64,000 nucleotides of DNA from a phage: sequence record PZ386965.1, one strand, 5' to 3'. Positions 1 to 63,897 of this stretch are shown piece after piece. Position numbers and translations under genes: made by a program. Numbering within the stretch: position 1 is the stretch's first letter; each line of letters opens with the position of its first letter. Under the pieces are notes generated by a model. That model saw only the letters and a list, made by a program, of their open reading frames with translations. It did not search any database and was not told the DNA's origin.

Positions 1-546
1 CATGACTAGAGCTTCAGAACCAGGATTTTTCTCAACGAATTCACGTGCTTGGTTATGGGCTTCAAGTTCACTTAGTAAACCACTTCGTTGGCATCCACGG
101 TCTTGAGTACCCTGTTCAGATAAAAAGACGACGATGTATTTTTCATCGTCATACGGTTTAGACGGTTGAGCAAATGTTCCTTTACTTCCAAAAGGAGAGT
201 TATGACGCCACATCACGCCGTGAGGAGTTTCAACCTTCGTATATTCGTGCGGGCCATTTTTCTTAATTTCTTGATGTGGAACTTCGTAGACCTTAGGGTT
301 AGGACATTCAATAAAATGCTCATCTAAATCAGTCGAGAATATTAAAGTGAAACAATTACTGAATTTACCGACACCTGCCTGATAAATTTTACCTTCAGAA
401 GTTCTAATTTCACAAACCGAGCCGGCATCAGTAACTTCTAAAACTTCAAAAGGCTCGATAAGGTCATATGAGAACATGTTTTTAAGGCGTGGAGTAATAT
501 CCCCATTTTTAAAATTCATTTTATAAAAAGTATTAACTTTAAACAT
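1..546 (-). CDS. hypothetical protein, 3' end truncated by window edge (30.x-like early ORF)
   Basis: Open minus-strand frame from ATG at 544-546 (GAGGA SD upstream) running off position 1; not in ORF track because it lacks an in-window stop. Confidence 0.4.
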   Translation of the reverse strand, partial: MFKVNTFYKMNFKNGDITPRLKNMFSYDLIEPFEVLEVTDAGSVCEIRTSEGKIYQAGVGKFSNCFTLIFSTDLDEHFIECPNPKVYEVPHQEIKKNGPHEYTKVETPHGVMWRHNSPFGSKGTFAQPSKPYDDEKYIVVFLSEQGTQDRGCQRSGLLSELEAHNQAREFVEKNPGSEALVM

Positions 547-3071: not shown

Positions 3072-3642
3072 AAAAGTTTCGGATTTGTTCCCAATTCAGA
3101 GAACGAAGATTATTACGAGAGTACTGAATTACTTCAATACCGGCTTGTTTTAGAATGTCTGCCCAATTTTCAGGAGATCTGTCATATAATTCTGCATATA
3201 CAACCTTTTTAATACCTGACTGTGTAATAGCTTTAGTGCAATCAGGACATGGAGAAAGCGTCGTATACAACGTAGCACCTTCAATAGAATTACCTTTACG
3301 AGCTGCAAACAAAATTGCATTCAATTCCGCATGGATTTCATTATTAGCAGACCATGCACTATGAGCGGCCCGATGTTCTTTAGCCAAAACAAAATTATCC
3401 ACCCGTCCAAATGCTGTAGTGCCTTCTTTATGCCCAGCAACGATGACCGGGCTTGGTTTATTCTTCAACCAACCGTTTTCGGATGCATGTTCGCAACAGT
3501 TTGTACCACCTGAAGGAGAGCCATTATAACCTGTAGAAATAATGCGTCCATCTTTTTCAATGACGGCACCAACTTTCCATGAACAACATTTTGATTCTTG
3601 AGAAATCAGATAAGCAATCTGAAGATATGTGCTAGCTTTCAT
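3061..3642 (-). CDS. cd: dCMP deaminase
   Basis: 193 aa with zinc-dependent deaminase motifs HAELNAI and SPCPDC. Confidence 0.9.
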   Translation of the reverse strand: MKASTYLQIAYLISQESKCCSWKVGAVIEKDGRIISTGYNGSPSGGTNCCEHASENGWLKNKPSPVIVAGHKEGTTAFGRVDNFVLAKEHRAAHSAWSANNEIHAELNAILFAARKGNSIEGATLYTTLSPCPDCTKAITQSGIKKVVYAELYDRSPENWADILKQAGIEVIQYSRNNLRSLNWEQIRNFCGE

Positions 3643-4634
3643 TATTGAACCTTATTAATATGAGTTAACAGCTCTTTAGTTTGTTCCCAACTGATGCACG
3701 CATCGGTAACGGAAACGCCATAGGACATATTATCAGAAATTTTTTGATTTCCTTCATGTAGGAATGATTCTATCATAATTCCTTTGACCAAATCATTAGC
3801 TGCTAAATTTTTACCAATACCAATTTGATTGCTATAATGCCCAGCAGCGTTTGCATGGCTACAGTCAACCATTACATAATGATTCAGACCTACGGCCCTT
3901 GCTTTGTTAGAAGCTTCTTGAATATCAGAAGAATGATAGTTCGGGCCATTGGTCCCGCCACGCAATACGATATGCGTATTCTGATTACCTTCAGCTTCAA
4001 CAATGCCTACAGTACCATCGACGTCCATACCCATATACCGATGAGGCCAGGCGGCACTATACATCGCGTCTGTAGCTACTTTAATAGAACCATTGGTTGC
4101 GTTCTTGAAGCCTACGCACATCGGTAGACCTGAAGCAATTTCACGATGTGTCTGACTTTCAGTCGTACGGGCGCCAATAGCAACCCATGAGAAAATACCA
4201 GAAAGATACTTAATCGTGAATGGGTCTAATACTTCAGTTGCTAATGGAAGTCCCATACGTAGAAGTTTACGACACAATGTTCGTGCAACTATAAGACCGT
4301 GGTTCATATCAAAACTTCCGTCAAGATATGGATCATTTACAAGACCTTTCCAACCTACGGTAGTTCGAGGCTTTTCAAAATAAACGCGCATCACTAACAG
4401 AACATTAGGAAGACGAGTTTGAAGTTCAGCCAGACGTTTGCCGTATTCAACAGCAGCAATAGGGTCATGAATTGAACAAGGACCTACAACAATAAGTTTG
4501 CGTGGGTCTTCACCATTCATAATCGAATTAACTTGTTCGCGATGAGAAGCCACTTGTGATGCGTAAGCTTCCGACAAAGGAATAATCTCAGCCAGTTCTT
4601 TTGGAGAAATAAGTTTTCCGACGACAGGTAACAT
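3642..4634 (-). CDS. 3-deoxy-7-phosphoheptulonate (DAHP) synthase, class I (AroG/AroF-like)
   Basis: 330 aa with IVVGPCSIHD, MRVYFEKPRTTVGWKGL, GARTTESQTHRE motifs of AroG-type DAHP synthase; stop overlaps cd start (TAATG). Confidence 0.9.
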   Translation of the reverse strand: MLPVVGKLISPKELAEIIPLSEAYASQVASHREQVNSIMNGEDPRKLIVVGPCSIHDPIAAVEYGKRLAELQTRLPNVLLVMRVYFEKPRTTVGWKGLVNDPYLDGSFDMNHGLIVARTLCRKLLRMGLPLATEVLDPFTIKYLSGIFSWVAIGARTTESQTHREIASGLPMCVGFKNATNGSIKVATDAMYSAAWPHRYMGMDVDGTVGIVEAEGNQNTHIVLRGGTNGPNYHSSDIQEASNKARAVGLNHYVMVDCSHANAAGHYSNQIGIGKNLAANDLVKGIMIESFLHEGNQKISDNMSYGVSVTDACISWEQTKELLTHINKVQ

Positions 4635-6818: not shown

Positions 6819-6819
<1 letters not shown>

Positions 6820-7118
6820 TATTTTATTCCTAAGAAAATTTCAAGAATACGAATGTTATGCTCGCGCCGGTCTTTATTAATTTCAGCAACGTTTTTATTA
6901 ATTGACGTACTTCTAACGTTTGAAGAAATAAATTTAATCATATGACTTTTGAGTTGTTGCAAATCCAACCCTTTTTCTTTAGCAGCTTTACGAAGAGCTT
7001 TACCTGCTTCATCTAGTGCCTTTGCTGCATCTTTGTCATAATTGCCAAGTGACATTCCACGACAGATATCAATATACTCATCAGACCGTTTGATGTAATT
7101 CTCTAGTAATGTTTTCAT
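6819..7118 (-). CDS. hypothetical protein (99 aa)
   Basis: ORF track; early promoter motif at 7147-7176. Confidence 0.45.
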
Positions 7119-9735: not shown

Positions 9736-9765
9736 ATTGTACCACAATCCTTGTGGTATGTAAAC
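9736..9765 (-). promoter_or_regulatory. sigma70-type early promoter (rnlA)
   Basis: Minus strand GTTTAC-18 nt-TACAAT; spacer holds inverted repeat ACCACAA-TCC-TTGTGGT. Confidence 0.4.
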
Positions 9766-10175
9766 TACTTTTTCTTATGTTGGATATTCCAAGGCGGGTT
9801 GAACTTTTTGATAAAAAGTGGTTCTTCAAGGTCCATTGTTGCGATGGTCATTGAACCAAGTTCGTTGGTGACTGAAAGGTCAAAACATTGGCGGGCCCAG
9901 AATTCAACCTTTTTGCCTTGCATTAAGGCATCCAAAATCATAAGTGATTTTCTTGAATCTGAAGTCTGGTCTTTTCGATTTATGGCTGTTCGATAATAGT
10001 TAATGCGTTTCTTTAAATTCTTGGTTTTACCAATATATACAAGTTCGTCATCTATAGCAATAGCGTATATGACATTTTTCTTATTAGGGACATCAACTGT
10101 TTTAATTGTTGCATCTTCTAATAGCTCCAATTCTGTATATTTAATAAAGGAATATTCGGCGGCAATATCTTTCAT
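9765..10175 (-). CDS. denA: endonuclease II (GIY-YIG family)
   Basis: 136 aa with IYAIAID...VYIGKT GIY-YIG motif; located between rnlA and nrdB. Confidence 0.75.
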   Translation of the reverse strand: MKDIAAEYSFIKYTELELLEDATIKTVDVPNKKNVIYAIAIDDELVYIGKTKNLKKRINYYRTAINRKDQTSDSRKSLMILDALMQGKKVEFWARQCFDLSVTNELGSMTIATMDLEEPLFIKKFNPPWNIQHKKK

Positions 10176-10201: not shown

Positions 10202-11380
10202 TTAGAAATATTTTTTGTATGAATTGATTACATTTTGGTCTACATCATTATCAATTTGTGCGACAAGATAAGAACTGATTTCAACTTCCTGAGGAGCTGC
10301 TTGAACTAAATCGGAGTTCAGATATTCACGAATCCAAGGATACGGATGCTTGGTCGGAGCATTAGTGATTGGGCATGGCAAACCACACTGCTTCATACGA
10401 GACACAGTCAAGTAATCAACAAAAGCACACATACTCTGCGTATTGATACCTGGACATGTACCGTCTTTAAAGAGGTGTGCAGCCCATTCCTTCTCTTGTC
10501 TATTTACTTCCATAAAAATATCAACTGCTTCTTGTTCACATTCTTTAGCAATTTGAACCCACTCATCACCATCAGTACCAGATTGAAGTTGACGGATAAT
10601 GTACTGAGTACCCTTGAGGTGGAGTTGCTCGTCACGAGCAATGAACTTCATAATCTTTGCATTACCTTCCATAATTTCCATATTTTTATGGAAGTTGAAA
10701 GTACATGCAAATGATACGTAAAAACGAATAGCTTCCAAGGCGTTGATAACATGCAAACAGAGATAAAGAGACTTCATTAGGTCATGTTTACATTCTTCCA
10801 TGTGCATAAGACTATTTGAATATGCATCTAAATCATATTCATTTTCAGAAAAACATTTAAAAATTTCTTTAGCATTTTCCCATTCACGGGTTTTAATCAG
10901 AACGTCATCATAATAACGTCCAATGGATTCAGCGCGTTTCATAATAGCTTCATCTAATACAATTTCATCAAATACCTTCGATGGATCGGTATAAAGATTT
11001 CGCATAATATGAGTATACGAACGAGAGTGAATAGTTTCACTGAATGTCCATGTTGCGACCCATGTATCTAATGAAGGGTCAGAAATCAGTGCCATAAGTA
11101 CCGCAGATGGGGCCCTGCCTTGGATAGAATCTAATAATGATTGATACTTAAGATTGTTTGTAAAGATGTCCTGTTGGAACTGAGGAAGCTTATTGAACTG
11201 CGCAGAGTCCAACATCAAGTTTACCTCTTCTGGGCGCCAGAAAAACGACAATTGCTTTTCAATAAGTTCTTCAAAAACTTTATGACGCTGAATATCATAC
11301 CGTGCGAGGCCAAGACCAGAACCAAAGAACATCGGTTCATTCAAAACATCGACTTGTTGCGTGTTAAAAACTGTACTCAT
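10202..11380 (-). CDS. nrdB: ribonucleotide reductase class Ia small (beta) subunit
   Basis: 392 aa; di-iron ferritin-like motifs (EAIRFYVSF..., ARDEQLH); uninterrupted, no intron. Confidence 0.9.
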   Translation of the reverse strand: MSTVFNTQQVDVLNEPMFFGSGLGLARYDIQRHKVFEELIEKQLSFFWRPEEVNLMLDSAQFNKLPQFQQDIFTNNLKYQSLLDSIQGRAPSAVLMALISDPSLDTWVATWTFSETIHSRSYTHIMRNLYTDPSKVFDEIVLDEAIMKRAESIGRYYDDVLIKTREWENAKEIFKCFSENEYDLDAYSNSLMHMEECKHDLMKSLYLCLHVINALEAIRFYVSFACTFNFHKNMEIMEGNAKIMKFIARDEQLHLKGTQYIIRQLQSGTDGDEWVQIAKECEQEAVDIFMEVNRQEKEWAAHLFKDGTCPGINTQSMCAFVDYLTVSRMKQCGLPCPITNAPTKHPYPWIREYLNSDLVQAAPQEVEISSYLVAQIDNDVDQNVINSYKKYF

Positions 11381-11434
11381 TATATTTTCTCACTTAGTTA
11401 TAACTCATCCATGAGTAAATTATAATCAAAAGTC

Positions 11435-13726
11435 TTAAAGCTTACAAGCAGAACAATCTTCAGCTTTAGGTGTTTCTAATTCATAGTCATCTGTACCTGA
11501 CCCATCACGAGTGTTATGATAGTAGAGATTTTTTCCGCCAAAGTACCAGAAGTAAAGCAGATCGTCAAGCATTACCGACATTGGCACTTTACCTTTCTCA
11601 AATACTGCAGGGTCATAGTAAGTATTAGCAGAAGCAGACTGGCACACCCATTTCAACATGATAGCAACTTGGGTCAAATAAGGTTTATTACCTTTCTTAG
11701 CAAGTTTCCACGCATAGTCGTAAAGACTCATGTTATGTTCGATATTAGGAACAACCTGTCGGAAGTTGCCTTCTTTAGATTCTTTAATACTTACTGGGCC
11801 GCGTGGTGGCTCAATCCCGTTTGTAGAGTTAGATACTTGACTGCTTGACTCACAAGGCATGAGTGCAGACAACGTTGAGTTACGAATTCCGTGTTCTTTG
11901 AGTTCAGCTCGAAGTTCTTCCCAGTCACAGACGTAGTTCGGGGCTGCGATTTGGTCAATCTTTTTATTGTACCAGTCGATAGGTAATTCGCCTCTAGACC
12001 ATTTAGTGTCTGAATAATACTCACAAGGTCCTTTTTCTTTGGCGAGTTTGATTGAAGCTTTGATAAGGCCATATTGCAATCTCTCAAACAATTCATGAGT
12101 CAAATCGTTAGCGTCTTCATATGAAGCAAAGTTAGAAGCTAACCATGCAGCATAGTTCGTAACACCAACACCGAGATTTCGACGTTTTTTAGCTTTTAAA
12201 GCTTCTGGAACCGGATAATCTTGATAGTCTAACAGGTTATCAAGTGCACGTACTTGTACTTCAGCAAGTTCATTAATTTTATCTTGGTCTTGCCAATCAA
12301 ATTTATCAAGAACAAAAGCGGATAACGTGCATAAACCAATTTCAGCATCATGGCCATTCACATCATTAGTTGGAATAGCGATTTCACAACATAAGTTACT
12401 CTGACGAATTGGAGCTTTTTCACGAATAAACGGAGTGTAGTTATTCGTGTTATCAACAAACTGTGGATAAATTCGAGCAGTACCAGAACGTTCAGTCATG
12501 AACAATTCAAAGAGTTCTAATGCTTTGATTCTTTTCTTTCTGATTGTTGGGTCTTTTTCAGCTTTCTCATAAAGCTCACGGAATTTATCTTGATCTTCAA
12601 AGAACGAGTAATATAGTTCGCCTGACATTTCGTGAGGGCTAAATAAAGTAATATAATCATTTTTACCAAGGCGTTCCATCATGAGGTCATTAATCTGAAT
12701 TCCGTAGTCCATATGTCGAATACGGTTTTCATCCACGCCTTTGTTATTTTTCAGAACTAATAGGTTCTCTACTTCTAAGTGCCACATCGGATAATACGCT
12801 GTAGCAGCACCACCACGAATACCACCTTGAGAACAAGATTTTACTGCAGTTTGGAAATGTTTCCAGAATGGAATAACACCTGTATGTCGAACTTCACCCA
12901 TACCGATCTTAGAACCTTCTGCACGAAGCATACCAACGTTGATACCGATACCAGCTCGTTTAGAAATATATTCAATAATTGATGCTGAAGTTTTGTTAAT
13001 AGATTTTAACGAATCACCGGCTTCAATAACTACACAACTAGAGAACTGGCGAGTTGGAGTACGAGCACCTGCCATAATTGGAGTAGGCAACGAAACTTGA
13101 TGAGTAGAAACGGCATCATAAAAACGAATAATATGTTTCAAACGGTCATGAGTTTCGTCTTGATGTAAGGCCATACCAATAGCCATGATAGCAAACTGGG
13201 GAGTTTCATAAATCTTACCAGTTGTTTTATCTTTAACCAAGTATTTTTCTTTAAGCTGCATAGCACCAGCATAAGTCAGGTCAAAATCTCGCTCGTGTTT
13301 AATCTGAGAATCAAGATAAATGATTTCTTCTGCAGAATATCTAGACAACAACTCGGGATCGTATTTGCCTTCATTAACACAATACGAGATATGGTCGATA
13401 AAAGCAGGAGGTTCAAACTGTCCATATACATCTTTACGAAGTGCAAACATTAATCCTTTAGCGGCGACATATTGATAATCAGGTTCTTCGACAGAAATCG
13501 AGTTAGCTGCAACTTTAATACAAATCTTCTGGATATCTTTGGTGCTCATCCCATCGACAAGATGGGTCTTAATTTCTTCATACAATTCATATGGGTCGAT
13601 TTGTGTTCCTTCACATTGCCAAGTTAAGACTTGAATAATTTTCTGTGCATCAAAATTTTGGGATACACCACTGCTCTTAGTTACTTGCATATATTCCTCA
13701 GTATAGGTTGATAGACAATACTCCAA
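11435..13726 (-). CDS. nrdA: ribonucleotide reductase class Ia large (alpha) subunit
   Basis: 763 aa; active-site region NLCCEI and C-terminal redox Cys pair (CSACKL). Confidence 0.9.
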   Translation of the reverse strand: MEYCLSTYTEEYMQVTKSSGVSQNFDAQKIIQVLTWQCEGTQIDPYELYEEIKTHLVDGMSTKDIQKICIKVAANSISVEEPDYQYVAAKGLMFALRKDVYGQFEPPAFIDHISYCVNEGKYDPELLSRYSAEEIIYLDSQIKHERDFDLTYAGAMQLKEKYLVKDKTTGKIYETPQFAIMAIGMALHQDETHDRLKHIIRFYDAVSTHQVSLPTPIMAGARTPTRQFSSCVVIEAGDSLKSINKTSASIIEYISKRAGIGINVGMLRAEGSKIGMGEVRHTGVIPFWKHFQTAVKSCSQGGIRGGAATAYYPMWHLEVENLLVLKNNKGVDENRIRHMDYGIQINDLMMERLGKNDYITLFSPHEMSGELYYSFFEDQDKFRELYEKAEKDPTIRKKRIKALELFELFMTERSGTARIYPQFVDNTNNYTPFIREKAPIRQSNLCCEIAIPTNDVNGHDAEIGLCTLSAFVLDKFDWQDQDKINELAEVQVRALDNLLDYQDYPVPEALKAKKRRNLGVGVTNYAAWLASNFASYEDANDLTHELFERLQYGLIKASIKLAKEKGPCEYYSDTKWSRGELPIDWYNKKIDQIAAPNYVCDWEELRAELKEHGIRNSTLSALMPCESSSQVSNSTNGIEPPRGPVSIKESKEGNFRQVVPNIEHNMSLYDYAWKLAKKGNKPYLTQVAIMLKWVCQSASANTYYDPAVFEKGKVPMSVMLDDLLYFWYFGGKNLYYHNTRDGSGTDDYELETPKAEDCSACKL

Positions 13727-14033: not shown

Positions 14034-15729
<1,696 letters not shown>

Positions 15730-17201: not shown

Positions 17202-17273
17202 GGATTATTACCTTTTATTTAGATTATTTAATTTATTTACAGTTGGTTGCTACGACACTTATACCTCGTAGCT
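17202..17273 (-). promoter_or_regulatory. gene 32 5' leader: candidate autoregulatory translational operator
   Basis: A/U-rich leader with repeated AAATAA elements, preceded by a 7-bp stem hairpin (GCTACGA...TCGTAGC); assignment by analogy to T4. Confidence 0.4.
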
Positions 17274-17282
17274 GGTATGATT

Positions 17283-17290
17283 TATTTATA
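17283..17290 (-). promoter_or_regulatory. possible late promoter TATAAATA (gene 32)
   Basis: TATAAATA on minus strand about 80 nt upstream of gene 32. Confidence 0.35.
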
Positions 17291-17319
17291 AAGTAATTTT
17301 AACACACAAGAAATAAAGC

Positions 17320-18555: not shown

Positions 18556-18562
18556 GTTTACC

Positions 18563-19542: not shown

Positions 19543-19545
19543 TGG

Positions 19546-19553: not shown

Positions 19554-19583
19554 AGTATTATTGAAACAATAAAGGAAAAACGA

Positions 19584-23459: not shown

Positions 23460-23467
23460 GAGGTATT

Positions 23468-24595: not shown

Positions 24596-24600
24596 ATTTA

Positions 24601-24625
24601 GGGAGACTTCGGTCTCCCATTTTTG
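24601..24625 (+). terminator. hairpin terminator after gene 35
   Basis: GGGAGAC-UUCG-GUCUCCC then AUUUUU on plus strand. Confidence 0.55.
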
Positions 24626-24633
24626 TATAAATA
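24626..24633 (+). promoter_or_regulatory. late promoter TATAAATA (gene 36)
   Basis: Exact TATAAATA 25 nt upstream of gene 36 ATG, just after the gene 35 hairpin. Confidence 0.55.
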
Positions 24634-24657
24634 TGGTATACATATAAGGAGACAACT

Positions 24658-25320
24658 ATGGCCGATTTAAAAGCTGGTAGTACAACTGGCGGTGCCGTTA
24701 TATGGCATCAAGGTAATTTCCCTTTAATGCCAGCAGGTGATGACGTCCTGTATAAAACGTTTAAACTCTATTCAGAATATAATAAACCACAAGCGGCTGA
24801 TAATGATTTCGTTTCTAAAGCTAACGGTGGTACTTATGCCGCGACCGTTCGATTTAATGGAGGAGTACATGTTCCTACTATAGGTAGTAGTCAACAGTGC
24901 GGTGTTTATCCAGGTAACGGTGATGCTGCTACTTTTGATACAGCAAATATTGATATTGTTTCATGGTATGGCATTGGTTTTAAATCATCACAAGGATCTG
25001 CAGGTAGAACTGTTGTTGTTAACACTCGTACTGGTGATATCAGCACTAAAGGTGGTATTTATGCAACTGGTCCTGTCCGTTCTAACGCTACTGCTCCGGT
25101 TGCAGCAAATGACCTTACTAGAAAGGACTATGTTGATGGACGAATAAATATTGTTACGGATAACGCAAATTCCCGTGTATTGCGTAAAGGCGATACCATG
25201 ACTGGTACTTTAACAGCACCAAACTTTTTCTCACAGAATCCGGCGTCTGAGGCTAATCATGTTCCTCGTTTCGACCAGATTGTAATTAAAGATTCTGTTC
25301 AAGATTTCGGCTATTATTAA
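24658..25320 (+). CDS. 36: gp36 long tail fiber distal connector subunit
   Basis: 220 aa; [23 protein letters not shown]...; own late promoter. Confidence 0.85.
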
Positions 25321-25328
25321 GAGGACTT

Positions 25329-33146: not shown

Positions 33147-34472
33147 TCAAAGTGCCTCCAAGTCTTTAGTGTACTCTGTCACAACATCAGTAGACTTCCA
33201 ATACTCATTTTCTTCTTTCTTAGCTTTAGCTTCTTCTGCTAGTTTACGTGCTTCGTCGGAAGTGATATGGAAGATGTTAAGACCCACCAGTTTATCGACA
33301 TGTTCTTTGTACATTTCGATTTGTGCTAGCTCTTCAGTCAAAGCTTTACGAGTCTTGCCCTGAATCACGATTTCACCGTTGATAACTTTTTTGATGAAGT
33401 GTGCCTTAGCAAAAGCCAGTTTAAATGCTTTTTCAGATTCAAGGATTTTGTTGTCAATACGTTTCTGAACGTAAGTCTTACGGACTTCAACAAAATCTTT
33501 GATTAAGTCCACTACGTTATCGTAGACTGCTAATTTACCCTTTTCATTAATCACTGTGATGTTTTGTGAACGACGTTCGATGAGACTAAAATCTTTCATG
33601 ATTTTTTCATGACGTAGCTCTTCATCATCAGGAAGCGAGTACTCTTTACGGAACTTCACCTTAAACCCAAAGCCGTGTTCACCACAATCATCTTCCCATG
33701 AGATTAGACCTTTGTCTTCCAACGGGTCAAGAACCTTACTCACATACGTTTCACGGTCGAATTTATACGGGATTTCAGTTATCTGCATTTGAGTGCGAGA
33801 TGTGAACTTATATGTTCCGTGAATCTCATAACGCCCATCAACTTCATGTACTTCACCATGGAATTCCGGGAATTCAACTTTTGGCTTAGTGACATTTTTA
33901 CCTTGAAGAGCTTGTAATACAGCCTTTTTTACCGATTTAAAACTATGAGGCAGAATACTTGTTGCGTAACCGGTTGCAATACCAGATACACCATTCAAAA
34001 GAACTGTCGGAATAATAGGAAGATAGAATTTTGGTGGAACGTGTTCTTTATCTTCATGAGCTGGAGCATATTCAGTATCTTTATATACGTTATAGAAATT
34101 TTTACTTACACGAGCAAAAATATAACGAGATGCTGCAGCTTTTTGGACTGTTCGAGAACCAAAGTTGCCTTGACCATCTAATAGTGGATAGTTGTTATTC
34201 CATGTGTTAGCCATCAATGCACCTGCATCTTGTGCAGAAGATTCACCATGGTGATAACCTAAATCTGCAACACCGCCTGCAATTGACGCAAGTTTATGAA
34301 ATTTTTCTTTATTACCACGAGCCAAATCTAACGCACGATGGACCACAAAACGTTGAACCGGCTTAAATCCATCAATCATGTTTGGGATTGCACGGTTTTC
34401 AACGGTGTACATCGCATATGCTAAGGCTTCGTTATCAATAATACTTTTTAGATTACGAGAATTCAATTGCAT
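33147..34472 (-). CDS. 52: gp52 topoisomerase II medium subunit (GyrA-like)
   Basis: 441 aa; ...AMYTVENRAIPNMIDGFKPVQRF... DNA breakage-reunion domain. Confidence 0.9.
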   Translation of the reverse strand: MQLNSRNLKSIIDNEALAYAMYTVENRAIPNMIDGFKPVQRFVVHRALDLARGNKEKFHKLASIAGGVADLGYHHGESSAQDAGALMANTWNNNYPLLDGQGNFGSRTVQKAAASRYIFARVSKNFYNVYKDTEYAPAHEDKEHVPPKFYLPIIPTVLLNGVSGIATGYATSILPHSFKSVKKAVLQALQGKNVTKPKVEFPEFHGEVHEVDGRYEIHGTYKFTSRTQMQITEIPYKFDRETYVSKVLDPLEDKGLISWEDDCGEHGFGFKVKFRKEYSLPDDEELRHEKIMKDFSLIERRSQNITVINEKGKLAVYDNVVDLIKDFVEVRKTYVQKRIDNKILESEKAFKLAFAKAHFIKKVINGEIVIQGKTRKALTEELAQIEMYKEHVDKLVGLNIFHITSDEARKLAEEAKAKKEENEYWKSTDVVTEYTKDLEAL

Positions 34473-40420: not shown

Positions 40421-41521
40421 TTACGCTGTGAAGATTTTATCCCACATCGCAACAACTGCATCTCGATTATACTTCTTCCATACTGCTTCAGCACGTTTAA
40501 CTCGAGCTTCGTATGTGTCAGTGAATTCTAATACAGCTTTTGTGTAAAGCGCAACTACTTCTTTCTTAGGAGTAGAGGAATCAATTTCTACACGCACAGT
40601 ATCTGGGTCGTATTCAAATGACGCATGAGGATAATCCTTAAAAACTAACTGGATTACAGGGACACCTTTAGAGATGGCTTCAATAGAACTATTCTCTACC
40701 GTACCTGTGTCAGGACACGTATTAATAAGTGCTTTAGCTGTTTTAAGACGTTCCATAATTTCACTGTGTGGAGCATCAATAATAACAGGATATTTAGCTG
40801 GTGGTGCCCATTTACTAGGACAGTATCCTGCACCATTTTCGCCTAGTGCTTTAATCGCTTCAAGAGCAACATCAGTACGACGCATTTTAGTGTCATAACG
40901 TTGTGCACTAATAATCAGATCAGTCGCCGGAAGAACTTCAGGTTTCTCATTCAAACAAATAACCGGATAATCTTCGGCTTCAAACAACGGATTTGCTCGC
41001 CAATAATCATAATCAATTTTGTCAGTCAGACCTGAAGTCATATAACAATATTTACGTTCAAATTCACGGAAGGCTTTAGTAGGAGCATAACTCTTACCAC
41101 CGTTCTTATGAATTTGAATAGTCTGGTCCCAAATTTGAACAATGCCACGAGATACCGGTTCAAATGGTGTTGCCATAAAATTCTTATGAACTTTAGAGAG
41201 ACCTGCGTCTTTAATTGCCTGAACGGTTAGTTTAGTCGGTTCCATAGTAACAACGAAATCGTATTCATGGATGCCGGCTAGTTCAACAATCTTACGAGCC
41301 ATAGTATAACTCATACCTAGACTGAATTTAGTCAGATGACCAACAGGATGATGATTAACCTTCCAATCACCAAATGTGTCATTATCAAAACCAATATAAT
41401 CAATATCGGCACCGATAGAAACTAAATATTTCAACACATTTAAATGTACTGCTTCAAGACCACCTTGTACACGGTCAGGATTAAATGGGACTGCACGAGA
41501 TGGGATAAACATAACTTTCAT
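40421..41521 (-). CDS. GT-B fold glycosyltransferase (GT4-like)
   Basis: 366 aa; N-terminal ...FNPDRVQGGLEAVHLNVLKYL (GG-E motif) and C-terminal TVENSSIEAISKGVPVI (E-x7-E-like); ATG at 41519-41521. Confidence 0.65.
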   Translation of the reverse strand: MKVMFIPSRAVPFNPDRVQGGLEAVHLNVLKYLVSIGADIDYIGFDNDTFGDWKVNHHPVGHLTKFSLGMSYTMARKIVELAGIHEYDFVVTMEPTKLTVQAIKDAGLSKVHKNFMATPFEPVSRGIVQIWDQTIQIHKNGGKSYAPTKAFREFERKYCYMTSGLTDKIDYDYWRANPLFEAEDYPVICLNEKPEVLPATDLIISAQRYDTKMRRTDVALEAIKALGENGAGYCPSKWAPPAKYPVIIDAPHSEIMERLKTAKALINTCPDTGTVENSSIEAISKGVPVIQLVFKDYPHASFEYDPDTVRVEIDSSTPKKEVVALYTKAVLEFTDTYEARVKRAEAVWKKYNRDAVVAMWDKIFTA

Positions 41522-41539: not shown

Positions 41540-41565
41540 TTAAAATGAAGCTCCCGAAGGAGCTT
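41540..41565 (-). terminator. UUCG-tetraloop hairpin after gene 39
   Basis: AAGCUCC-UUCG-GGAGCUU then U-rich tail on minus strand, between gene 39 and the glycosyltransferase gene. Confidence 0.45.
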
Positions 41566-43381
41566 AGGACATCCATTCTTTACGAAGTTCTGAATCATCA
41601 CCCATCAACATTTCAAAGAGTTCTTTCCAATTTTCAGGAAGTTTAACTACGTCGTACACAGGGTTCTGAATCATTTCACGATATTCTGACTTTTCAAGGG
41701 AGCCTAATCCCTTGATGTATCGAATACTATGCTTAGGCAGTGTATCTTTAACTTCTTCATACTCAGCTACAGTATAAAACCATTTTTGAGTTTTGCCAAT
41801 TTGTGCAATAATTACAGGTGTTTTAACAAAGCGAATACGTCCTTGTTCAAACAATTCAGGCCAATTACTAAAGAAAGCAAGCAAAGCCGGATAGATACTT
41901 CCAAGACCGTCATGATCTGCATCAGTCATAATTGCAATATTACGATAGTTCGTATTCTCTGCCTTTTCACCAAGAATAAGACCTGTGATAGCACAGATAT
42001 CAAAGAGCTCTTTGTTCTTCATCATATCAGCATATGACATACCCCAGCTATTCATCACCTTACCACGTAACGGGAATCCGCCGTGTAGTTCACGGTCACG
42101 AACATCAATGAGATAACCAATTGCAGAATCACCTTCTGTTAAGAACAATGTCGTATCTGCATCTTTACCACATTGGTTAGCTTTAATATGCTTATGAACC
42201 TTAGCTTTAGTTGCCTTTTTAGCTGCTTTAGTTTCTGCAGCCTTTTCTGCCGCCAATTTACGAGCTAATGCTGCTTCAACAATAGGCATAATCAAGGCTT
42301 CGTTTTTAAGAAGTGCCTGAGCAATTTTCTTAGCATCTAATTGGATATGATTACGAATATCGCCATACGTTGACGTTAAACGTTCTTTAGTCTGAGAATC
42401 AAAACGCATGTTGCTCATGTCTCTAATAAACATCAACATTGTGAGGCATTCTTTAACACGAGCTTTAGTGACTTCAATACCCTTATATTTCTTTTTAATA
42501 CCCGGCAAAAGATGTTCGCAGATATCGTCCATTACACATTCAACATGATGTCCACCATTTTTAGTATGGATGTTATTCACATAAGTTAAATGACGGAAGC
42601 CATCTGGTGATGTTGTGAATGCTATAGAGACTTTATCATTTTCTTGAATGATGTTATCTTCACCAAATTGTTTAGCAAATCGTTTAAAATTACCATCAAC
42701 CTTTTTACCGTTAAATGTGAACTTGATATCAGGATAAACGACTGCCAATGTTTGAAGTCGGTCTAAAGTAATATCTAAATAAATTTGAGATAAATTATGC
42801 TCTTCAAATGAAGTGAAATCAGGAGTGAAGATTACTTTAGTGCCTTTACCTTTAGATTTCTTAGAAGACCATGATTTGTTTTCCATTCCGTTTGAACAGT
42901 TAACAGTGATTTCATTTTCGCCATCTGACGTAATGCCTGTAAACAACGTAGAGAAGATATTAGTTAAACTACTCCCTACACCGTTCATACCACCGGTCTT
43001 GCGTTCAGAGTCATCACCAAAGTTACCACCAGCCTTTGGAATAGTCCAGGCTGCTACAGGCCCAGGAATTTGTTCACCTGTTTGGTCGGTAACTAAACCT
43101 TGAGGAATACCACGTCCGTTATCTTCTACAGAAACTTGATTATTTTTAATTTGCACATCAATTTTATTTGCAAACTTAAATGATGTACGAATAGCTTCAT
43201 CAACCGAGTTGTCAATAATCTCATCGATTAATTTAACCAGGCCAGGAACATATTCAACTTGTTGATATTTACCAAACAAAAAACGCTCATGTGCTTCTTT
43301 GGCCGAAGAACCAATATACATACCACTACGTTTCTTAATATGTTCTACATCTGACAATACCTTAATTTCATTTTTAATCAT
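41564..43381 (-). CDS. 39: topoisomerase II large subunit (GyrB-like), unsplit
   Basis: 605 aa; GHKL ATPase motifs (IDNSVDEA, NGRGIP, GGMNGVGSS) and Toprim region in one ORF. Confidence 0.9.
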   Translation of the reverse strand: MIKNEIKVLSDVEHIKKRSGMYIGSSAKEAHERFLFGKYQQVEYVPGLVKLIDEIIDNSVDEAIRTSFKFANKIDVQIKNNQVSVEDNGRGIPQGLVTDQTGEQIPGPVAAWTIPKAGGNFGDDSERKTGGMNGVGSSLTNIFSTLFTGITSDGENEITVNCSNGMENKSWSSKKSKGKGTKVIFTPDFTSFEEHNLSQIYLDITLDRLQTLAVVYPDIKFTFNGKKVDGNFKRFAKQFGEDNIIQENDKVSIAFTTSPDGFRHLTYVNNIHTKNGGHHVECVMDDICEHLLPGIKKKYKGIEVTKARVKECLTMLMFIRDMSNMRFDSQTKERLTSTYGDIRNHIQLDAKKIAQALLKNEALIMPIVEAALARKLAAEKAAETKAAKKATKAKVHKHIKANQCGKDADTTLFLTEGDSAIGYLIDVRDRELHGGFPLRGKVMNSWGMSYADMMKNKELFDICAITGLILGEKAENTNYRNIAIMTDADHDGLGSIYPALLAFFSNWPELFEQGRIRFVKTPVIIAQIGKTQKWFYTVAEYEEVKDTLPKHSIRYIKGLGSLEKSEYREMIQNPVYDVVKLPENWKELFEMLMGDDSELRKEWMS

Positions 43382-43424: not shown

Positions 43425-43445
43425 AGCAAAAAGGGCCGAAGCCCT
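43425..43445 (-). terminator. UUCG-tetraloop hairpin terminator
   Basis: AGGGC-UUCG-GCCCU-UUUUGC on minus strand. Confidence 0.5.
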
Positions 43446-43891
43446 TATTTAAATTTAATTTTCTGAAGTGCATCAATTGCAGCCAAACGCCCTTGTTCAC
43501 TTTTAACTGTAATGACCACATCGCCTGATACGATCACCGAACCATCAACAAATTCTATAGAGCCTTTTTTGAAATCGACAGCTGTATCTGGTTCCGGAAC
43601 TTCTTCAAAGAATTTAAATTCTGCACCGTAAATCAGAATATCACCTTGCATACTATGAATAGTTCGGCCATAATCGCCTACGGCTTCTACAGCAATCACT
43701 GAAACACCATAGCCAATCATCTCTTCCACAATAAAATCTTTGGACAATAAAGTAGTATGCAGATTAGTATTAAGACGTTTACCAGTCGTATTAAGAATTC
43801 TCAAGAAATTATCTTCCTGTCCTTTGATAATACGATATTTCTTACCAACTTCAAAACCTTTAAAACCTTTAAAAGCCGTATTAAAAGCCAT
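43445..43891 (-). CDS. hypothetical protein (148 aa)
   Basis: ORF track; followed by UUCG hairpin terminator. Confidence 0.45.
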   Translation of the reverse strand: MAFNTAFKGFKGFEVGKKYRIIKGQEDNFLRILNTTGKRLNTNLHTTLLSKDFIVEEMIGYGVSVIAVEAVGDYGRTIHSMQGDILIYGAEFKFFEEVPEPDTAVDFKKGSIEFVDGSVIVSGDVVITVKSEQGRLAAIDALQKIKFK

Positions 43892-45348: not shown

Positions 45349-45768
45349 TTATGCGAAAGCAGCTGGGCTATATTTTTTAATTTGGAATTCAGGAACTACC
45401 ATGAACTGCCCGGCAAAAACAATGTTATAAAGCTTGACACCATCTTCTACCCAACGGTCGCTAATAAATCCAGCGATTTGCTTAGTTTTCCATGGTGTTC
45501 CATCAGTTGCCGCAGCAATAGTGAATTCATGGTCTTTTTCAACAGAAACTGATCTGCATAGTCCCCATTTGAACGCTTTTTCTTCTGGCTCAATGAACTG
45601 GCTTTTAACGTAACCAATGTTGCCATCAGCATCACGAACTTTAACTTCATTGCGACCAAAAACAGGATCACTTACATAAAGAACTTCAACCAACTTACCA
45701 GCAACTTTAGAGCGAGAAGCATCCGATACGTGTACGTAATCACCAATAGAGAGATTTGCAATATTCAT
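45349..45768 (-). CDS. hypothetical protein, paralog family member 1
   Basis: Shares C-terminal GFISDRWVEDGVKLYNIVFAGQF with two upstream ORFs. Confidence 0.5.
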   Translation of the reverse strand: MNIANLSIGDYVHVSDASRSKVAGKLVEVLYVSDPVFGRNEVKVRDADGNIGYVKSQFIEPEEKAFKWGLCRSVSVEKDHEFTIAAATDGTPWKTKQIAGFISDRWVEDGVKLYNIVFAGQFMVVPEFQIKKYSPAAFA

Positions 45769-45777
45769 AATAATTCC

Positions 45778-46233
45778 TTAAGCTTTACGAGGAGATACAT
45801 AGCGAGTGATTTCAGATTCTTTAACAACTCTGAAGTCACCTAAGAATACGATATTGTATAACTTTTCACCATCTTCTACCCATTGGTCACTAATGAAGCC
45901 ACACATGATATCAGTTTTGTTTGGATAACCATATTCGTCGATGAAATCAAATTCTTTATCAGTCCGGAATTCAACGCCTTTGCAAAGGGCCCATTTGAAC
46001 TGTACATTAGGTTCAGTAGAAGCAAAATGAGCGCTCACATGAGTTTCCAAGAATTTAGGACTTACGTAAGCGTACTGAGTTTCAGTTTTTCCAGAACTAG
46101 GAATGATTCGAACTTTAACTTCTTTAACACGACCAGTACCATTAGTACGAAGTCCTACCACTTCAACTAGACGACCTGCAGCTTTAGAACGAGATGCAGA
46201 CGATACACGCTTAATTTCACCAATAGTAATCAT
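45778..46233 (-). CDS. hypothetical protein, paralog family member 2
   Basis: ORF 45778-46296 trimmed to Met downstream of promoter; C-terminal GFISDQWVEDGEKLYNIVFLGDF. Confidence 0.5.
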   Translation of the reverse strand: MITIGEIKRVSSASRSKAAGRLVEVVGLRTNGTGRVKEVKVRIIPSSGKTETQYAYVSPKFLETHVSAHFASTEPNVQFKWALCKGVEFRTDKEFDFIDEYGYPNKTDIMCGFISDQWVEDGEKLYNIVFLGDFRVVKESEITRYVSPRKA

Positions 46234-46263
46234 AATTTCTCTCTCTTTGTTTAAGTTGAATTC

Positions 46264-46293
46264 ATTATACTCCATCCATCCTTGGATGTACAA
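46264..46293 (-). promoter_or_regulatory. sigma70-type early promoter (paralog 2)
   Basis: Minus strand TTGTAC-18 nt-TATAAT; spacer contains CATCCAAGGATGGATG palindrome. Confidence 0.4.
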
Positions 46294-46295
46294 CA

Positions 46296-46790
46296 TTAAT
46301 TTAGAATATTAACTACTGCACTACGTGGAACCACACTAAAATCACCAGCATGAACAACGTTCAGAAGTTCAACACCGTCTTCAATCCACTGATCAGTTAC
46401 CCATCCATTTACTGGACCAGCGAATGGGCGTCGAATTGAAACATATTTACACAACAAATCAGTAGGCTCAATAGGCTTAATCAGAGTACCGTACATACAA
46501 GCGATATCCATATCAATACAGATGTCTTTAACGGGTTCTACTTCTTCAATCAACAGTTCAAAGTCGGTGCTTGGAAGGGCGGTGGTAGAAATTGTACCGT
46601 ATGAATTTTTAATTTCTAAGAATAACCAAGGGCCTTCAGCTTGTTTGATGAAGTTAACAATAGTGAAACTATTACCTTGAGTGGCACCTAAAATTTCACA
46701 AAACTTTTCATAAGCTCGCATTGAAGCACCGTACCAGTTAATTTGTTTTTCGTCTTTCAGGATGTAAGTAGCCGTGGTATTGATATTCAT
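46296..46790 (-). CDS. hypothetical protein, paralog family member 3 (divergent)
   Basis: C-terminal GWVTDQWIEDGVELLNVVHAGDF related to members 1 and 2. Confidence 0.5.
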   Translation of the reverse strand: MNINTTATYILKDEKQINWYGASMRAYEKFCEILGATQGNSFTIVNFIKQAEGPWLFLEIKNSYGTISTTALPSTDFELLIEEVEPVKDICIDMDIACMYGTLIKPIEPTDLLCKYVSIRRPFAGPVNGWVTDQWIEDGVELLNVVHAGDFSVVPRSAVVNILN

Positions 46791-53135: not shown

Positions 53136-53166
53136 AATTAACTCCTTTGTTGTTTAATTACAGGTG

Positions 53167-53174
53167 TATTTATA
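53167..53174 (-). promoter_or_regulatory. late promoter TATAAATA (soc)
   Basis: Plus-strand TATTTATA, i.e. TATAAATA on minus strand, about 32 nt upstream of soc. Confidence 0.5.
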
Positions 53175-53180
53175 ACTTAA

Positions 53181-55732: not shown

Positions 55733-56392
55733 TTAACCTCGATTCATAAATGCATTAAATATTTGGTCATCAACAGAAATTTCTAATTCGACTTCAATTG
55801 CTTCAACCTTTTCTTCAGGTGGTAATTCGTATCCACACACTACAATTTTTTCATCGATATCAAAATATACAGAAGCAATACGATTAATGTTACTTTCAGT
55901 TAAGTCTAAATCAACATCAACATCTTTTTGACCTACACTTAAAGGATAACTAATACGGGTTATTTTATTATCTTTAACAAAGAGTCCACCAACATACTCT
56001 GTACTACGTTTGAAGTTTACACGTTTCCGAATTGAAAGATATGATACATCTTTACCGTGAGCTCGGCTCATAGGACATAATGAATAGCTAGAATAAGAGA
56101 TGTCAAATCCTACGCCTTCAACATGTGCTAGAGTATCATGAGTAAACCAATTATAGTCGTATGCTAAATCCATTAAATTATAATATGTGAAAGGCACTGG
56201 ATTAACATCATATGTTGTACCTTTAAAATCTGCCCAGGCAACGATTTCGTTATCTTTAACAATTACAAAAATTATACCAATATGGTATCCGTTATTATTT
56301 TCATTCGGTGTTATATTATAACATTGTGCATTAGGAAATTTACCATATTTAAATGGCGCGTTTTTGTGCATATAATAAATCATATTATTCAC
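55733..56392 (-). CDS. hypothetical protein (219 aa)
   Basis: ORF track. Confidence 0.45.
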   Translation of the reverse strand: MNNMIYYMHKNAPFKYGKFPNAQCYNITPNENNNGYHIGIIFVIVKDNEIVAWADFKGTTYDVNPVPFTYYNLMDLAYDYNWFTHDTLAHVEGVGFDISYSSYSLCPMSRAHGKDVSYLSIRKRVNFKRSTEYVGGLFVKDNKITRISYPLSVGQKDVDVDLDLTESNINRIASVYFDIDEKIVVCGYELPPEEKVEAIEVELEISVDDQIFNAFMNRG

Positions 56393-56741: not shown

Positions 56742-56990
56742 TTATTCTTTTTCGCGAATAATAATTACTTGTTGAGGCTGCTGAGCCGATTTCTTTTCGG
56801 CAACGATAGACCAAATTAAAGTTCCAATCCAACCAACCATCGTCCAGTTAAAGAGTAAAGATACAAAGAAGATTGCTGTTGTGCTTTTTGTGCCACGAAT
56901 AAGTGCGATTACCCAAGGCAACATGTAAATGATGATTGAACCAATACCTGCGATTAAAACTGCTACTGAACTAGCCACGAATAATTCCAT
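56742..56990 (-). CDS. small integral membrane protein (82 aa)
   Basis: Two or three predicted TM helices by eye. Confidence 0.45.
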   Translation of the reverse strand: MELFVASSVAVLIAGIGSIIIYMLPWVIALIRGTKSTTAIFFVSLLFNWTMVGWIGTLIWSIVAEKKSAQQPQQVIIIREKE

Positions 56991-57051
56991 GTTAATTTCC
57001 TCTTGATTTGTTATGTTTATAGTATCTTGGTTTAACTTTGGTGTAAACCAA

Positions 57052-57420
57052 TTAATTAAATTTGTTTAAACGTTCAATACACTGGACGTAGTTATTCGCG
57101 ATTTGTTTCTGGGTAGGCTCTTTACCAGTTGTTTCAACATAGCGAATAAATGCGATTTCAGTAGCCTGTAGACAATGTTCTTTAACGCGTTGTTCTTTTG
57201 ACATAGCTACAGTATCAGAGTCACGATAACGTTGAGCATGAGCATCAGCTTGAATCATTCGATTACCTACAGTAACCGGGTCTTCCACTTCAACTTTAGG
57301 TTGGTTGTACTGTTTAACATTCGGATTGTAAATCAGTTGGCCAACGTTATTAGGGATAAAGCCATGAGCACCACATCCGGTTAATCCAAATACCATTGCT
57401 AAAGCGATTAATTTTTTCAT
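57052..57420 (-). CDS. lipoprotein (122 aa)
   Basis: ORF 57052-57480 trimmed to MKKLIALAMVFGLTGC lipobox start with AGGAAA SD; promoter motif lies in the untrimmed N-terminus. Confidence 0.5.
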   Translation of the reverse strand: MKKLIALAMVFGLTGCGAHGFIPNNVGQLIYNPNVKQYNQPKVEVEDPVTVGNRMIQADAHAQRYRDSDTVAMSKEQRVKEHCLQATEIAFIRYVETTGKEPTQKQIANNYVQCIERLNKFN

Positions 57421-57448
57421 TTCAATTTCCTCTATAGTTGATAGGTCT

Positions 57449-57478
57449 ATAGTATCACTACCATAGACCCCTGTAAAC
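57449..57478 (-). promoter_or_regulatory. sigma70-type early promoter (lipoprotein gene)
   Basis: Minus strand GTTTAC-18 nt-TACTAT; inverted repeat GGTCTAT/ATAGACC. Confidence 0.4.
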
Positions 57479-57490
57479 AATTATTTTATT

Positions 57491-61731: not shown

Positions 61732-62280
61732 TTAACGAGCCCATTTGATGATTTCTGTAATCAAACCATTACGTTCGCTTGCATTAAATCCTATAACTTT
61801 GTTAGCACCATCATGATTAAGTAATTGATATGTTTGGATTTTGTTATGAATTGCAAACTCTTCAAAATGTGAAATGACTGTATTAAAACCGAATGAAGAC
61901 AAAGTAATAAGGTCGTCTTCAAAACTTTCAGTCATTTCGTTACGTGTTAAAATAATTGTGAACACATCATGGTTTTGGCAAAGACGAACATAGTCCTGTT
62001 CATAAACGTCAAGAATCGAGTCCGCATCTTGTCGAATACGTCCATAAACCCAGTTACTAATATATCCACGGTCTAACAGATAAATCTTAGTAGGGTCTAA
62101 ATAATTCAACATCGTTTCGAAACAACCAACTTCATTTCGAGACTTAACATCGAAACGTCCATCAACTGTTCGTTTAGGGAAATCAATCTTTACATATCTT
62201 TCACTAATTTCCATTATGTCATTAATGAAAGTTGTTTTACCGGCATTATCCGGGCCATCTACTAAAATAATTTTAGCCAT
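61732..62280 (-). CDS. P-loop NTPase, nucleotide or sugar kinase-like (182 aa)
   Basis: N-terminal Walker A VDGPDNAGKTT; small kinase-like size. Confidence 0.5.
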   Translation of the reverse strand: MAKIILVDGPDNAGKTTFINDIMEISERYVKIDFPKRTVDGRFDVKSRNEVGCFETMLNYLDPTKIYLLDRGYISNWVYGRIRQDADSILDVYEQDYVRLCQNHDVFTIILTRNEMTESFEDDLITLSSFGFNTVISHFEEFAIHNKIQTYQLLNHDGANKVIGFNASERNGLITEIIKWAR

Positions 62281-62281
62281 T

Positions 62282-63181
62282 TTATTCCTCGATTACGACA
62301 TCTTCGTATTTAGGTATATTATACGGCGAAGAAATTAAAGCATTAAAGTAGATGAACTCACCAAGACCTGGATGGAATACTTCTTCAGGATTTTCGAAAT
62401 ATTGAATTTTCGGACGTCCTTTAAGAATTTGATAGTACTCAGTTTTAGTTGGTTTAAAAATTCGAATCAGCGCTTCTTCAGGATACTTATTTCTGTCGAA
62501 GCTATTATTTGGATCGGTTATATAAAGCGCTTGGCCTAATTGAATTGCACATTCAACCACTTGTTCAAAACGATAGCACGGGTCACTAATTCGAAATGGA
62601 TGAAAAATACCATCTAGATGAATAGGAGCCAAATCACCTACAAGACGCTGCATGATGGAAGGACGTATAACTTTCTGCGTTACGATAATCTTATTACCAT
62701 CTGCACCTGCGTTAACCAGCACTTCTTTTTGACGTTCATTCAACACAGTAGTTTGAAGTGAACGATTAACAGACAACATGTCGGTTTTTAAGAATTCATC
62801 AATATAAAAACGTGGTTTATTAGGGTCTGCAGTGATATTGAAATTGAATTCCACATCAAAAGCGCCGCCATAACCAGTGATATCTGTGATTAGAAAATCA
62901 CAATCATAATAATCAATTAATGAATCAACCACAAATTCATTTTCAGTCCAGAAATATTTACGAGTGTTATACGCGTTATCTTTATACCATAATGGAACAA
63001 ACTTAAATTCTGGGAAAAGACGTTCACATTCTTTAATATCAGATGCATTACGTGGATATGTAATCACATCACCCGGATTAGCACGGTGCAAATGAAGTTG
63101 GAAGTTGCCATCCTTAAGGATAGCATACTGTCCAGTTTCATAAGACCGCATACTCAAGATTGGTACGCGGAAAATAGCCAT
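62282..63181 (-). CDS. hypothetical protein (299 aa), candidate modification enzyme
   Basis: ORF track; occupies the uvsX-42 interval where T4 has beta-glucosyltransferase but has no recognisable bgt motifs. Confidence 0.45.
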   Translation of the reverse strand: MAIFRVPILSMRSYETGQYAILKDGNFQLHLHRANPGDVITYPRNASDIKECERLFPEFKFVPLWYKDNAYNTRKYFWTENEFVVDSLIDYYDCDFLITDITGYGGAFDVEFNFNITADPNKPRFYIDEFLKTDMLSVNRSLQTTVLNERQKEVLVNAGADGNKIIVTQKVIRPSIMQRLVGDLAPIHLDGIFHPFRISDPCYRFEQVVECAIQLGQALYITDPNNSFDRNKYPEEALIRIFKPTKTEYYQILKGRPKIQYFENPEEVFHPGLGEFIYFNALISSPYNIPKYEDVVIEE

Positions 63182-63897
63182 TAGTCAAGGAATCCTTTAA
63201 CATAATCAAAATCACGTTCAAACACATGGGCACTTACCATGGTATGAGTATAATCACCAACTTCTACACCGCATTCGTTAGCGATATAATGAAGTAATTT
63301 TCCTTGGAGATAAAAATCCAACTGCATAACAACAGCACAGTTCTGAGAACGCATATGACAGTGGGTATAAAGCTTACCATCACGAATATAATAAGTTACT
63401 GAGTCAGTACATGGATATTCAAGTGTTTCGTCCGAATCAAGCAAAGCCTGATCAGAACTTTCTAGAATTTGGAACACAACTCTTCGAGAGTTAGGTTTTT
63501 CTTTAAGTTCTTTTAGAAGAGTTGGTAATTGGGCCGCAATGCGAGGACCATAGAAAGTGTTGAAGTTCGCCGGCAAAACATCTGATTTTGGTTTAGAAAT
63601 AAATTTAGCGACATTAGGATATGCCTTAAACGCTTCTTCTGCGTTGGTACCACCAGAAATCATAAACTTCCAGAAGTCTTCGGCATATTCATAAGAGATG
63701 CGGTTAATACGTGGGTCGGTCATTTTGAATGATGATGGAGTGTCAACAACTACTGTCATAGACCCAATTTCATTACAACGTCCAATACGAGAATCAGTTA
63801 CGAATTCCGGGTTTTCTAAAATTTCACGATTGACTGCTTTAAACGCGGTTTGAAAATCTGCGGCTTTGATATATTTCATTGTGTTATGTTTTCCCAT
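63181..63897 (-). CDS. 42: thymidylate synthase-family pyrimidine hydroxymethylase (probable dCMP hydroxymethylase)
   Basis: 238 aa; ...SRRVVFQI...YPCTDSVTYYIRDG...MRSQN... parallels the TS active-site architecture seen in td in this window. Confidence 0.6.
   Translation of the reverse strand: MGKHNTMKYIKAADFQTAFKAVNREILENPEFVTDSRIGRCNEIGSMTVVVDTPSSFKMTDPRINRISYEYAEDFWKFMISGGTNAEEAFKAYPNVAKFISKPKSDVLPANFNTFYGPRIAAQLPTLLKELKEKPNSRRVVFQILESSDQALLDSDETLEYPCTDSVTYYIRDGKLYTHCHMRSQNCAVVMQLDFYLQGKLLHYIANECGVEVGDYTHTMVSAHVFERDFDYVKGFLD

Follow-up and report, generated by a model that had tools for sequence, protein, structure and literature searches.

The DNA analysed here, referred to as the window, is a 64 kb stretch of an ∼169 kb phage genome, elsewhere in which endonuclease genes may sit. 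It groups with the genus Mosigvirus (the RB69-like T-even phages), sharing 95–98% nucleotide identity with Mosigvirus genomes and, around gene 39, 97–98% with many of them (e.g. NBG1, ESh15, APCEc01 and SHSML-52-1). RB69 has the same genus-level backbone, with ∼94% identity in the nrdB–td block, which makes the window a different isolate. A greedy ORF map of the window contained 100 ORFs, 78 of which have a T4 counterpart and lie in T4 gene order. The order of 30.7, cd, pseT, denA, nrdB, nrdA, td, frd, 32, 59, rnh and 34–38, followed by t, motA, 52, rIIB, rIIA, 39, dexA, dda, modA/B, 56, 61, 41 and uvsX, is in near-perfect agreement with T4. Since the largest intergenic gap in the map is ∼220 bp, an unnoticed endonuclease gene would not fit between the ORFs.

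Between the cd and cd.2 homologues is a gene for a 330-aa protein of DAHP synthase family I (3642..4634, − strand; PF00793, E 6e-75) with no T4 counterpart. This family also includes KDO8P synthases, which use arabinose-5-phosphate, and DNA of the genus has been described as hydroxymethyl-arabinosylated (10.1101/2021.03.08.434280); the protein may be relevant to this modification. A 366-aa ORF between rIIA.1 and gene 39 (40421..41521, − strand) has no T4 homologue and no Pfam match, and is annotated as a putative hmC-arabinosyltransferase in related BASEL phages. Downstream of uvsX, three ORFs (61732..63897, − strand) take the place of T4 segA, beta-gt and gene 42. These encode a 182-aa thymidylate-kinase-like protein (phrog_761), a 299-aa uncharacterised protein and a 238-aa member of the thymidylate-synthase family, the last of which is only 25% identical to T4 gp42 and is annotated as dCMP hydroxymethylase in relatives. 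The imm and imm.1 homologues (56742..57480, − strand) lie between sp and gene 41, whereas their T4 position is between genes 42 and 43, indicating that the gene pair has been relocated. Three consecutive ORFs of 139, 172 and 164 aa (45349..46790, − strand) at the position of T4 motB, motB.1 and motB.2 all match the MotB family (PF17613), which suggests a tandem paralog array. The gp61.2 homologue (55733..56392, − strand) matches the Pfam family AdfA (anti-DarT factor A; E 6e-118) and, based on this match, is an anti-defence gene.

Gene 39 and its topoisomerase partner

The topoisomerase genes and the positions in gene 39 that correspond to the T4 interruptions are as follows.

41564..43381, − strand: gene 39, a single, uninterrupted, ATG-initiated ORF of 605 aa for the topoisomerase II large (GyrB/ParE-like) subunit
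41948..41962, − strand: gene 39 codons 474–478 (A-E-N-T-N), uninterrupted, at the insertion point of the ∼1 kb mobA/60.1 DNA of T4
41903..41908, − strand: gene 39 codons 492–493 (GGT CTT, Gly-Leu), equivalent of the take-off and landing codons of T4 gene 60
33147..34472, − strand: gene 52, topoisomerase II medium (GyrA/ParC-like) subunit, 88% identical to T4 gp52

A sequence-only reading of this DNA had described gene 39 as one 605-aa ORF with no gene 60, mobA or translational bypass element, and alignment with T4 39 plus 60 bore this out. The protein is collinear, in a single frame, with T4 gp39 aa 1–473 followed by gp60 aa 27–159: aa 1–474 are 79% identical to the gp39 part and aa 473–605 are 87% identical to the gp60 part, these being the coding sequences on either side of the insert in the T4 39/mobA/60.1/60 locus. 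Pfam domains were found in the order HATPase_c (47–190), DNA_gyraseB (transducer; 249–385), Toprim (411–519) and TOPRIM_C (520–604), with a weak, sub-threshold Toprim match (17.5 bits) and a TOPRIM_C match just below its cut-off (28.0 compared with 29 bits). The T4 split point falls within the Toprim domain of the window protein (aa 411–519). Hence, one ORF carries the ATPase, transducer and Toprim regions, and the same phage encodes the GyrA/ParC-like gp52 (Pfam DNA_topoisoIV, PF00521; E 5e-78). The gp39 protein would act as the GyrB/ParE-like ATPase–Toprim subunit and form a two-subunit type II topoisomerase with gp52, a complex that we infer from homology to relax DNA in an ATP-dependent manner. 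With gp39 in one piece and gp52 as its partner, gp60 and ribosomal bypass would not be needed.

At the junction, homology to T4 gp39 stops at GEKA and homology to gp60 restarts at NY. The last 43 residues of T4 gp39 (aa 474–516) and the first 26 of gp60 (aa 1–26) are insertion-derived and have no counterpart in the window. The junction sequence of the window gene is GEKAENTNYRNIAIMTDADHDG; it reads GLILGEKA-ENT-NYRNIAIMTDADHDGLGS, and nearly the same sequence is present in Tequatrovirus CM8 (GEKAENLNYHNIAIMTDADHDG) and in DLP3. A contiguous AEN(T/L)NY is therefore common to the window, the unsplit Tequatrovirus CM8 and the Acinetobacter phage DLP3, and no T4 insert-derived residues were found at the window junction when it was aligned with T4, CM8 and DLP3. 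Because the junction lacks insert residues and matches CM8 and DLP3, gene 39 has the 'parental' form and not that of a re-fused gene.

The features that T4 has and the window lacks are the ∼1 kb mobA insert, the HNH gene, the stop codon and the 50-nt gap. At the bypass site, the window reads GAC GGT CTT GGA (D-G-L-G) without a break, compared with GAT GGA TAG, the gap and then GGA TTA in T4, and nucleotide comparison with T4 gene 60 revealed no stop codon or 50-nt coding gap at this position. The T4 50-nt bypass sequence had no match across the window, and the T4 insert DNA matched nothing in it except the gene 60 coding part. Neither tblastn nor the Pfam HNH models gave any signal for an HNH (MobA) gene or pseudogene in gene 39. 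All three hallmarks of the MobA/gene 60 cassette, i.e. the split into two ORFs, the HNH gene and the 50-nt gap, were absent from the locus.

The one-piece arrangement is widespread. All of the 60 closest relatives have a single gene 39. In a broader survey, tblastn with gp39 identified 1,942 phage records with a homologue, and in an evenly spread sample of these (n = 60) the gene was unsplit in ∼55, many Tequatroviruses among them, and split with a homing endonuclease in ∼4. The unsplit genes of RB69, T2 and most T4-like phages resemble that of the window in length (∼604–605 aa), in their ATPase/transducer/Toprim organisation, in the gp52 partner and in the AEN(T/L)NY...DADHDG junction; nothing of substance differs. 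Unsplit Tequatrovirus gp39 shares 82.5% identity with the window protein, and the CM8 gene is annotated 'gp60plus39'. The gp39 of vB-Eco-KMB38 is 100% identical, although the nearby ORF layout differs.

These observations agree with published work, in which T4 is the exception, both for its 15 homing endonuclease genes and for a topoisomerase gene split by mobA 'as compared to related phage' (PMC2988022). Petrov et al. (2010, PMC2993671, Table 5) give 0 homing endonuclease genes for RB69 and 15 for T4, and the MobA–bypass cassette, the 'parental' unsplit genomes and rare re-fused cases have been described in a 2022 preprint (bioRxiv 10.1101/2022.08.31.505936). An unsplit gene 39 in a genome with no introns or endonucleases is thus a common and already known state for T4 relatives. 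From this distribution and literature, the unsplit gene appears to be ancestral. The T4 39/mobA/60.1/60 arrangement with its 50-nt gap would then be derived, having arisen when the MobA homing cassette inserted within the Toprim domain.

Intron and homing endonuclease sites in the window

The genes and spacers relevant to the T4 introns and homing endonucleases are listed below (the spacers and the nrdA segment have no strand).

9765..10175, − strand: denA (endonuclease II), the sole GIY-YIG protein in the window, 78% identical to T4 DenA
10202..11380, − strand: nrdB, ribonucleotide reductase small subunit, 392 aa, intron-less
11381..11434: nrdA–nrdB spacer, 54 bp, the site of mobE and nrdB.1 in T4, empty here
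11435..13726, − strand: nrdA, ribonucleotide reductase large subunit, 763 aa, a continuous ORF with Pfam support
13669..13726: 57-bp segment at the 5′ end of nrdA, where phage a20 instead has DNA with a Mob-like HNH gene, unoccupied here
14034..14894, − strand: td, thymidylate synthase, 286 aa, intron-less (Pfam Thymidylat_synt, 2–286)
17202..17319: spacer of 118 bp between genes 32 and 59, where T4 carries segG, empty here
53136..53180: spacer of 45 bp between gene 56 and soc, where T4 carries segF, empty here

In td, aa 1–183 align to T4 exon 1 and aa 184–286 to exon 2 without a break. The insertion point of the td introns of T4 and a20 corresponds to the boundary between window positions 14346 and 14345, where the junction is contiguous, CAACG is kept and T4 and the window do not differ in the 17 nt downstream of this point. 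Similarly, nrdB aa 1–225 align to T4 exon 1 and aa 227–392 to exon 2, with the T4 and a20 insertion point at about window positions 10705 and 10704. NrdA is 87% identical to its T4 counterpart over 753 aa in one alignment segment. The 1,017-nt td insert and the 598-nt nrdB insert of T4 are absent from the window genes, and the insert DNA had no significant match in the window. The window therefore has the same genes and insertion sites as those used by the T4-type td (I-TevI) and nrdB (I-TevIII) introns, but no intron RNA signal or intron ORF.

Searches with the group I intron model (Intron_gpI, RF00028) in permissive mode returned nothing at E ≤ 10 in window 9500–15800 and nothing at E ≤ 1 across the whole window. 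As a positive control, the same mode detected both T4 introns, that of td at 40.3 bits (E 9e-8) and that of nrdB at 35.7 bits (E 2e-6). A scan at the Rfam gathering score was dropped as an intron test, as it was blank both on the window and on T4's own nrdB–td region (T4 locus 17400–25800), the gathering cut-off of 50 bits being higher than the scores of the T4 introns. Permissive mode with the T4 control and alignment of the exon junctions were used in its place; a clean gathering-score scan is not proof of absence for ORF-containing phage group I introns. In neither td nor nrdB was an ORF interruption or an RF00028 match found. In agreement with the earlier proposal that td and nrdB are intron-free, both are continuous across the T4 exon junctions, and nrdA is one ORF; splicing of td and nrdB is not required.

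Homing endonuclease genes were also absent from the window. The 15 T4 homing endonucleases and gp60.1 gave only matches with E > 0.4 by tblastn in six frames, and the three homing endonucleases of a20 gave none at E ≤ 1. A Pfam scan of all 100 ORFs found no HNH, LAGLIDADG or other homing-endonuclease family, and the sole match of any nuclease type was to GIY-YIG, by DenA (PF01541; 28.1 bits, cut-off 22.6), a conserved 136-aa host-DNA nuclease and not a homing endonuclease. PHROGs searches with ten of the larger ORFs, nine of them without a T4 match, returned no endonuclease annotation. We relied on Pfam for the GIY-YIG class because our own Seg/I-Tev profile scored DenA at only E 3.4 and is insensitive to divergent GIY-YIG proteins. 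Accordingly, neither Seg/I-TevI/I-TevII-type GIY-YIG endonucleases nor Mob/I-TevIII-type HNH endonucleases were detected, and the original statement that there are no mobA, seg-like or I-Tev-like ORFs, with denA the only GIY-YIG gene, was upheld by the Pfam and six-frame searches.

The sites that T4 homing endonuclease genes occupy are short spacers in the window. Neither the MobE protein nor DNA of the mobE region had a match in the window. In the gene 32–59 spacer, only a 58-nt stretch upstream of gene 32 (17226..17282) is conserved with T4, at 86% identity despite the missing segG; this stretch probably serves gene 32 as a conserved regulatory leader.

Two candidate endonuclease ORFs were considered and rejected. 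ORF 6819..7118 gave a marginal match to the N-terminal Seg/I-Tev profile (E 0.06), the only one in the six-frame profile search, which returned nothing of the HNH type. The alignment contains no GIY or YIG motif and no catalytic Glu, Pfam GIY-YIG was silent at E ≤ 1, the protein is Lys/Glu-rich and helical-looking by eye, and a match to TnsD was sub-threshold (17.9 bits compared with a cut-off of 32.4). ORF 61732..62280 (182 aa), which lies at the T4 segA position, instead matched its thymidylate-kinase PHROG (phrog_761) at E 1e-44, with weak, sub-threshold Pfam P-loop matches.

The same sites in close relatives

Close relatives were compared over the nrdB–td interval (6.3 kb, window 9700–16000), where ∼50 distinct genomes are 94–96% identical to the window. 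About 15 of these ∼50 have 0.6–3 kb of extra DNA with annotated homing endonucleases or split td/nrdB genes, and RB69, PECP20, PhAPEC2 and others have the unoccupied block seen in the window. Both introns are present in a20 and NRG-P0074, that of td in AV110, F27 and SQ17, and that of nrdB in WFK, all at sites unoccupied in the window. Just after frd (15491..15496), many close relatives have ∼240–250 bp of extra DNA, which in a20 contains an 83-aa hypothetical ORF and which is missing in the window and RB69. Over window 29800–64000, the 60 closest relatives had no insertion of more than ∼0.5 kb, with 98–100% coverage and no large gaps.

Phage a20 (OQ067374), which shares ∼96% identity with the window in the flanking blocks, carries three elements exactly at sites that are empty in the window. 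Its nrdB has an additional 1,092 bp (10700–11791) that is 99.1–99.5% identical to the T4 nrdB intron, whereas the exons are only ∼80% identical to T4, and this intron contains a full-length 269-aa I-TevIII-like ORF, the T4 copy of which is truncated. Upstream of nrdA, 681 bp replace the 57 bp of the window and encode a Mob-like HNH protein (a20_71) that is 48% identical to MobE. Its td has an additional 1,016 bp (16056–17072), with an intron 90% identical to that of T4 compared with 71–79% for the exons, and an intron ORF 89% identical to I-TevI. The excess of identity to T4 in the nrdB intron (∼99%) over its exons (∼80%) is a signature of homing into Mosigvirus, and suggests that the intron moved recently between Tequatrovirus and Mosigvirus. 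In a review from 2010, no convincing evidence was reported for intron movement between genome types.

The absence of introns and endonucleases had been taken to indicate a lineage lacking T4 selfish elements. This part of the earlier account did not stand, since ∼15 of ∼50 close Mosigvirus relatives are occupied in the nrdB–nrdA–td region and a20 has three elements. The genus is polymorphic, and the absence belongs to this genome (also RB69 and others), not to the lineage. It was further argued that the accessory genes of the window are unlikely to be homing-endonuclease cargo, which does not follow from present-day absence and is supported only indirectly, by the lack of insertions above ∼0.5 kb in the 60 closest relatives over 29800–64000.

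Polymorphism of selfish elements and the alternatives

We are confident that the window derives from an RB69-like T-even phage with an ordinary one-piece gene 39, in which homing sites are unoccupied as a result of presence/absence polymorphism. The td and nrdB genes are intron-less alleles and the mobE, segG and segF sites short spacers, all of them representing unoccupied homing sites whose emptiness reflects the polymorphism of selfish elements within the genus, as opposed to a lineage-wide property. The empty sites were presumably never invaded rather than cleaned, although the precise loss of an intron would leave nothing behind to tell 'invaded and cleanly lost' from 'never invaded'.

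Precise loss ('hit and run') of introns or of a MobA cassette once present in ancestors of the phage is an unlikely alternative overall. Such losses have a precedent in fused topoisomerase genes with insert-derived termini in an Aeromonas clade (bioRxiv 10.1101/2022.08.31.505936), and intron-positive relatives of the window do exist. However, the gene 39 junction contains no insert residues and matches distant unsplit homologues. Furthermore, the td site is 81% identical to T4 (73/90 nt) compared with 77–80% for the rest of the gene, and identity this close to the gene average argues that there is no T4-like co-conversion tract.

We consider it very unlikely that resistance to I-TevI, I-TevIII, MobE and MobA, when the phage co-infects with relatives that carry introns, actively keeps the td, nrdB and gene 39 sites empty. 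Under that proposal, the resistance could come, for example, from synonymous differences in the targets (in td, CAACGT in place of CAACGC) or from an uncharacterised lineage-specific ORF. We infer instead that the empty sites remain cleavable, and the td site, judged from its sequence, is probably still a homing target.

There is also little to recommend the idea that one of the 22 small, uncharacterised lineage-specific ORFs encodes a homing endonuclease from a family not yet recognised, which we regard as highly improbable. Informative Pfam or PHROGs annotation is lacking for these ORFs, a new endonuclease family would escape domain searches, and Hef is a T-even homing endonuclease without classical motifs (cited in PMC2988022); ORF 6819..7118 also had its marginal profile match. 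That match is without GIY, YIG or catalytic Glu, with no Pfam GIY-YIG support, most of the 22 ORFs are shorter than 110 aa (1..546, 43445..43891 and 62282..63181 being larger), and those within 29800–64000 look fixed (98–100% coverage), unlike homing genes, which are present or absent between genomes.

Finally, a clade that as a whole is free of, or resistant to, T4-type selfish elements, with their absence fixed, is equally hard to credit: RB69 has no nrdB–td insertion and is listed without homing endonuclease genes (PMC2993671, Table 5), and the 60 closest relatives lack insertions of more than 0.5 kb in 29800–64000, but ∼15 of ∼50 relatives carry introns or endonucleases, a20 has three and a nrdB intron 99% identical to that of T4, and such occupied close relatives indicate that the clade can be, and partly has been, invaded.

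Polymorphism within the genus is therefore the reading that we retain. For annotation, gene 39 should be recorded as encoding the whole large subunit of topoisomerase II, neither a gene 60 nor a recoding event being expected, and beyond such correct annotation the finding matters little. It does provide a correction, in that the absence of selfish elements from one segment does not characterise a lineage in which approximately one-third of the sampled close relatives are occupied. In mixed infections, a phage with these sites empty would be a natural homing recipient.
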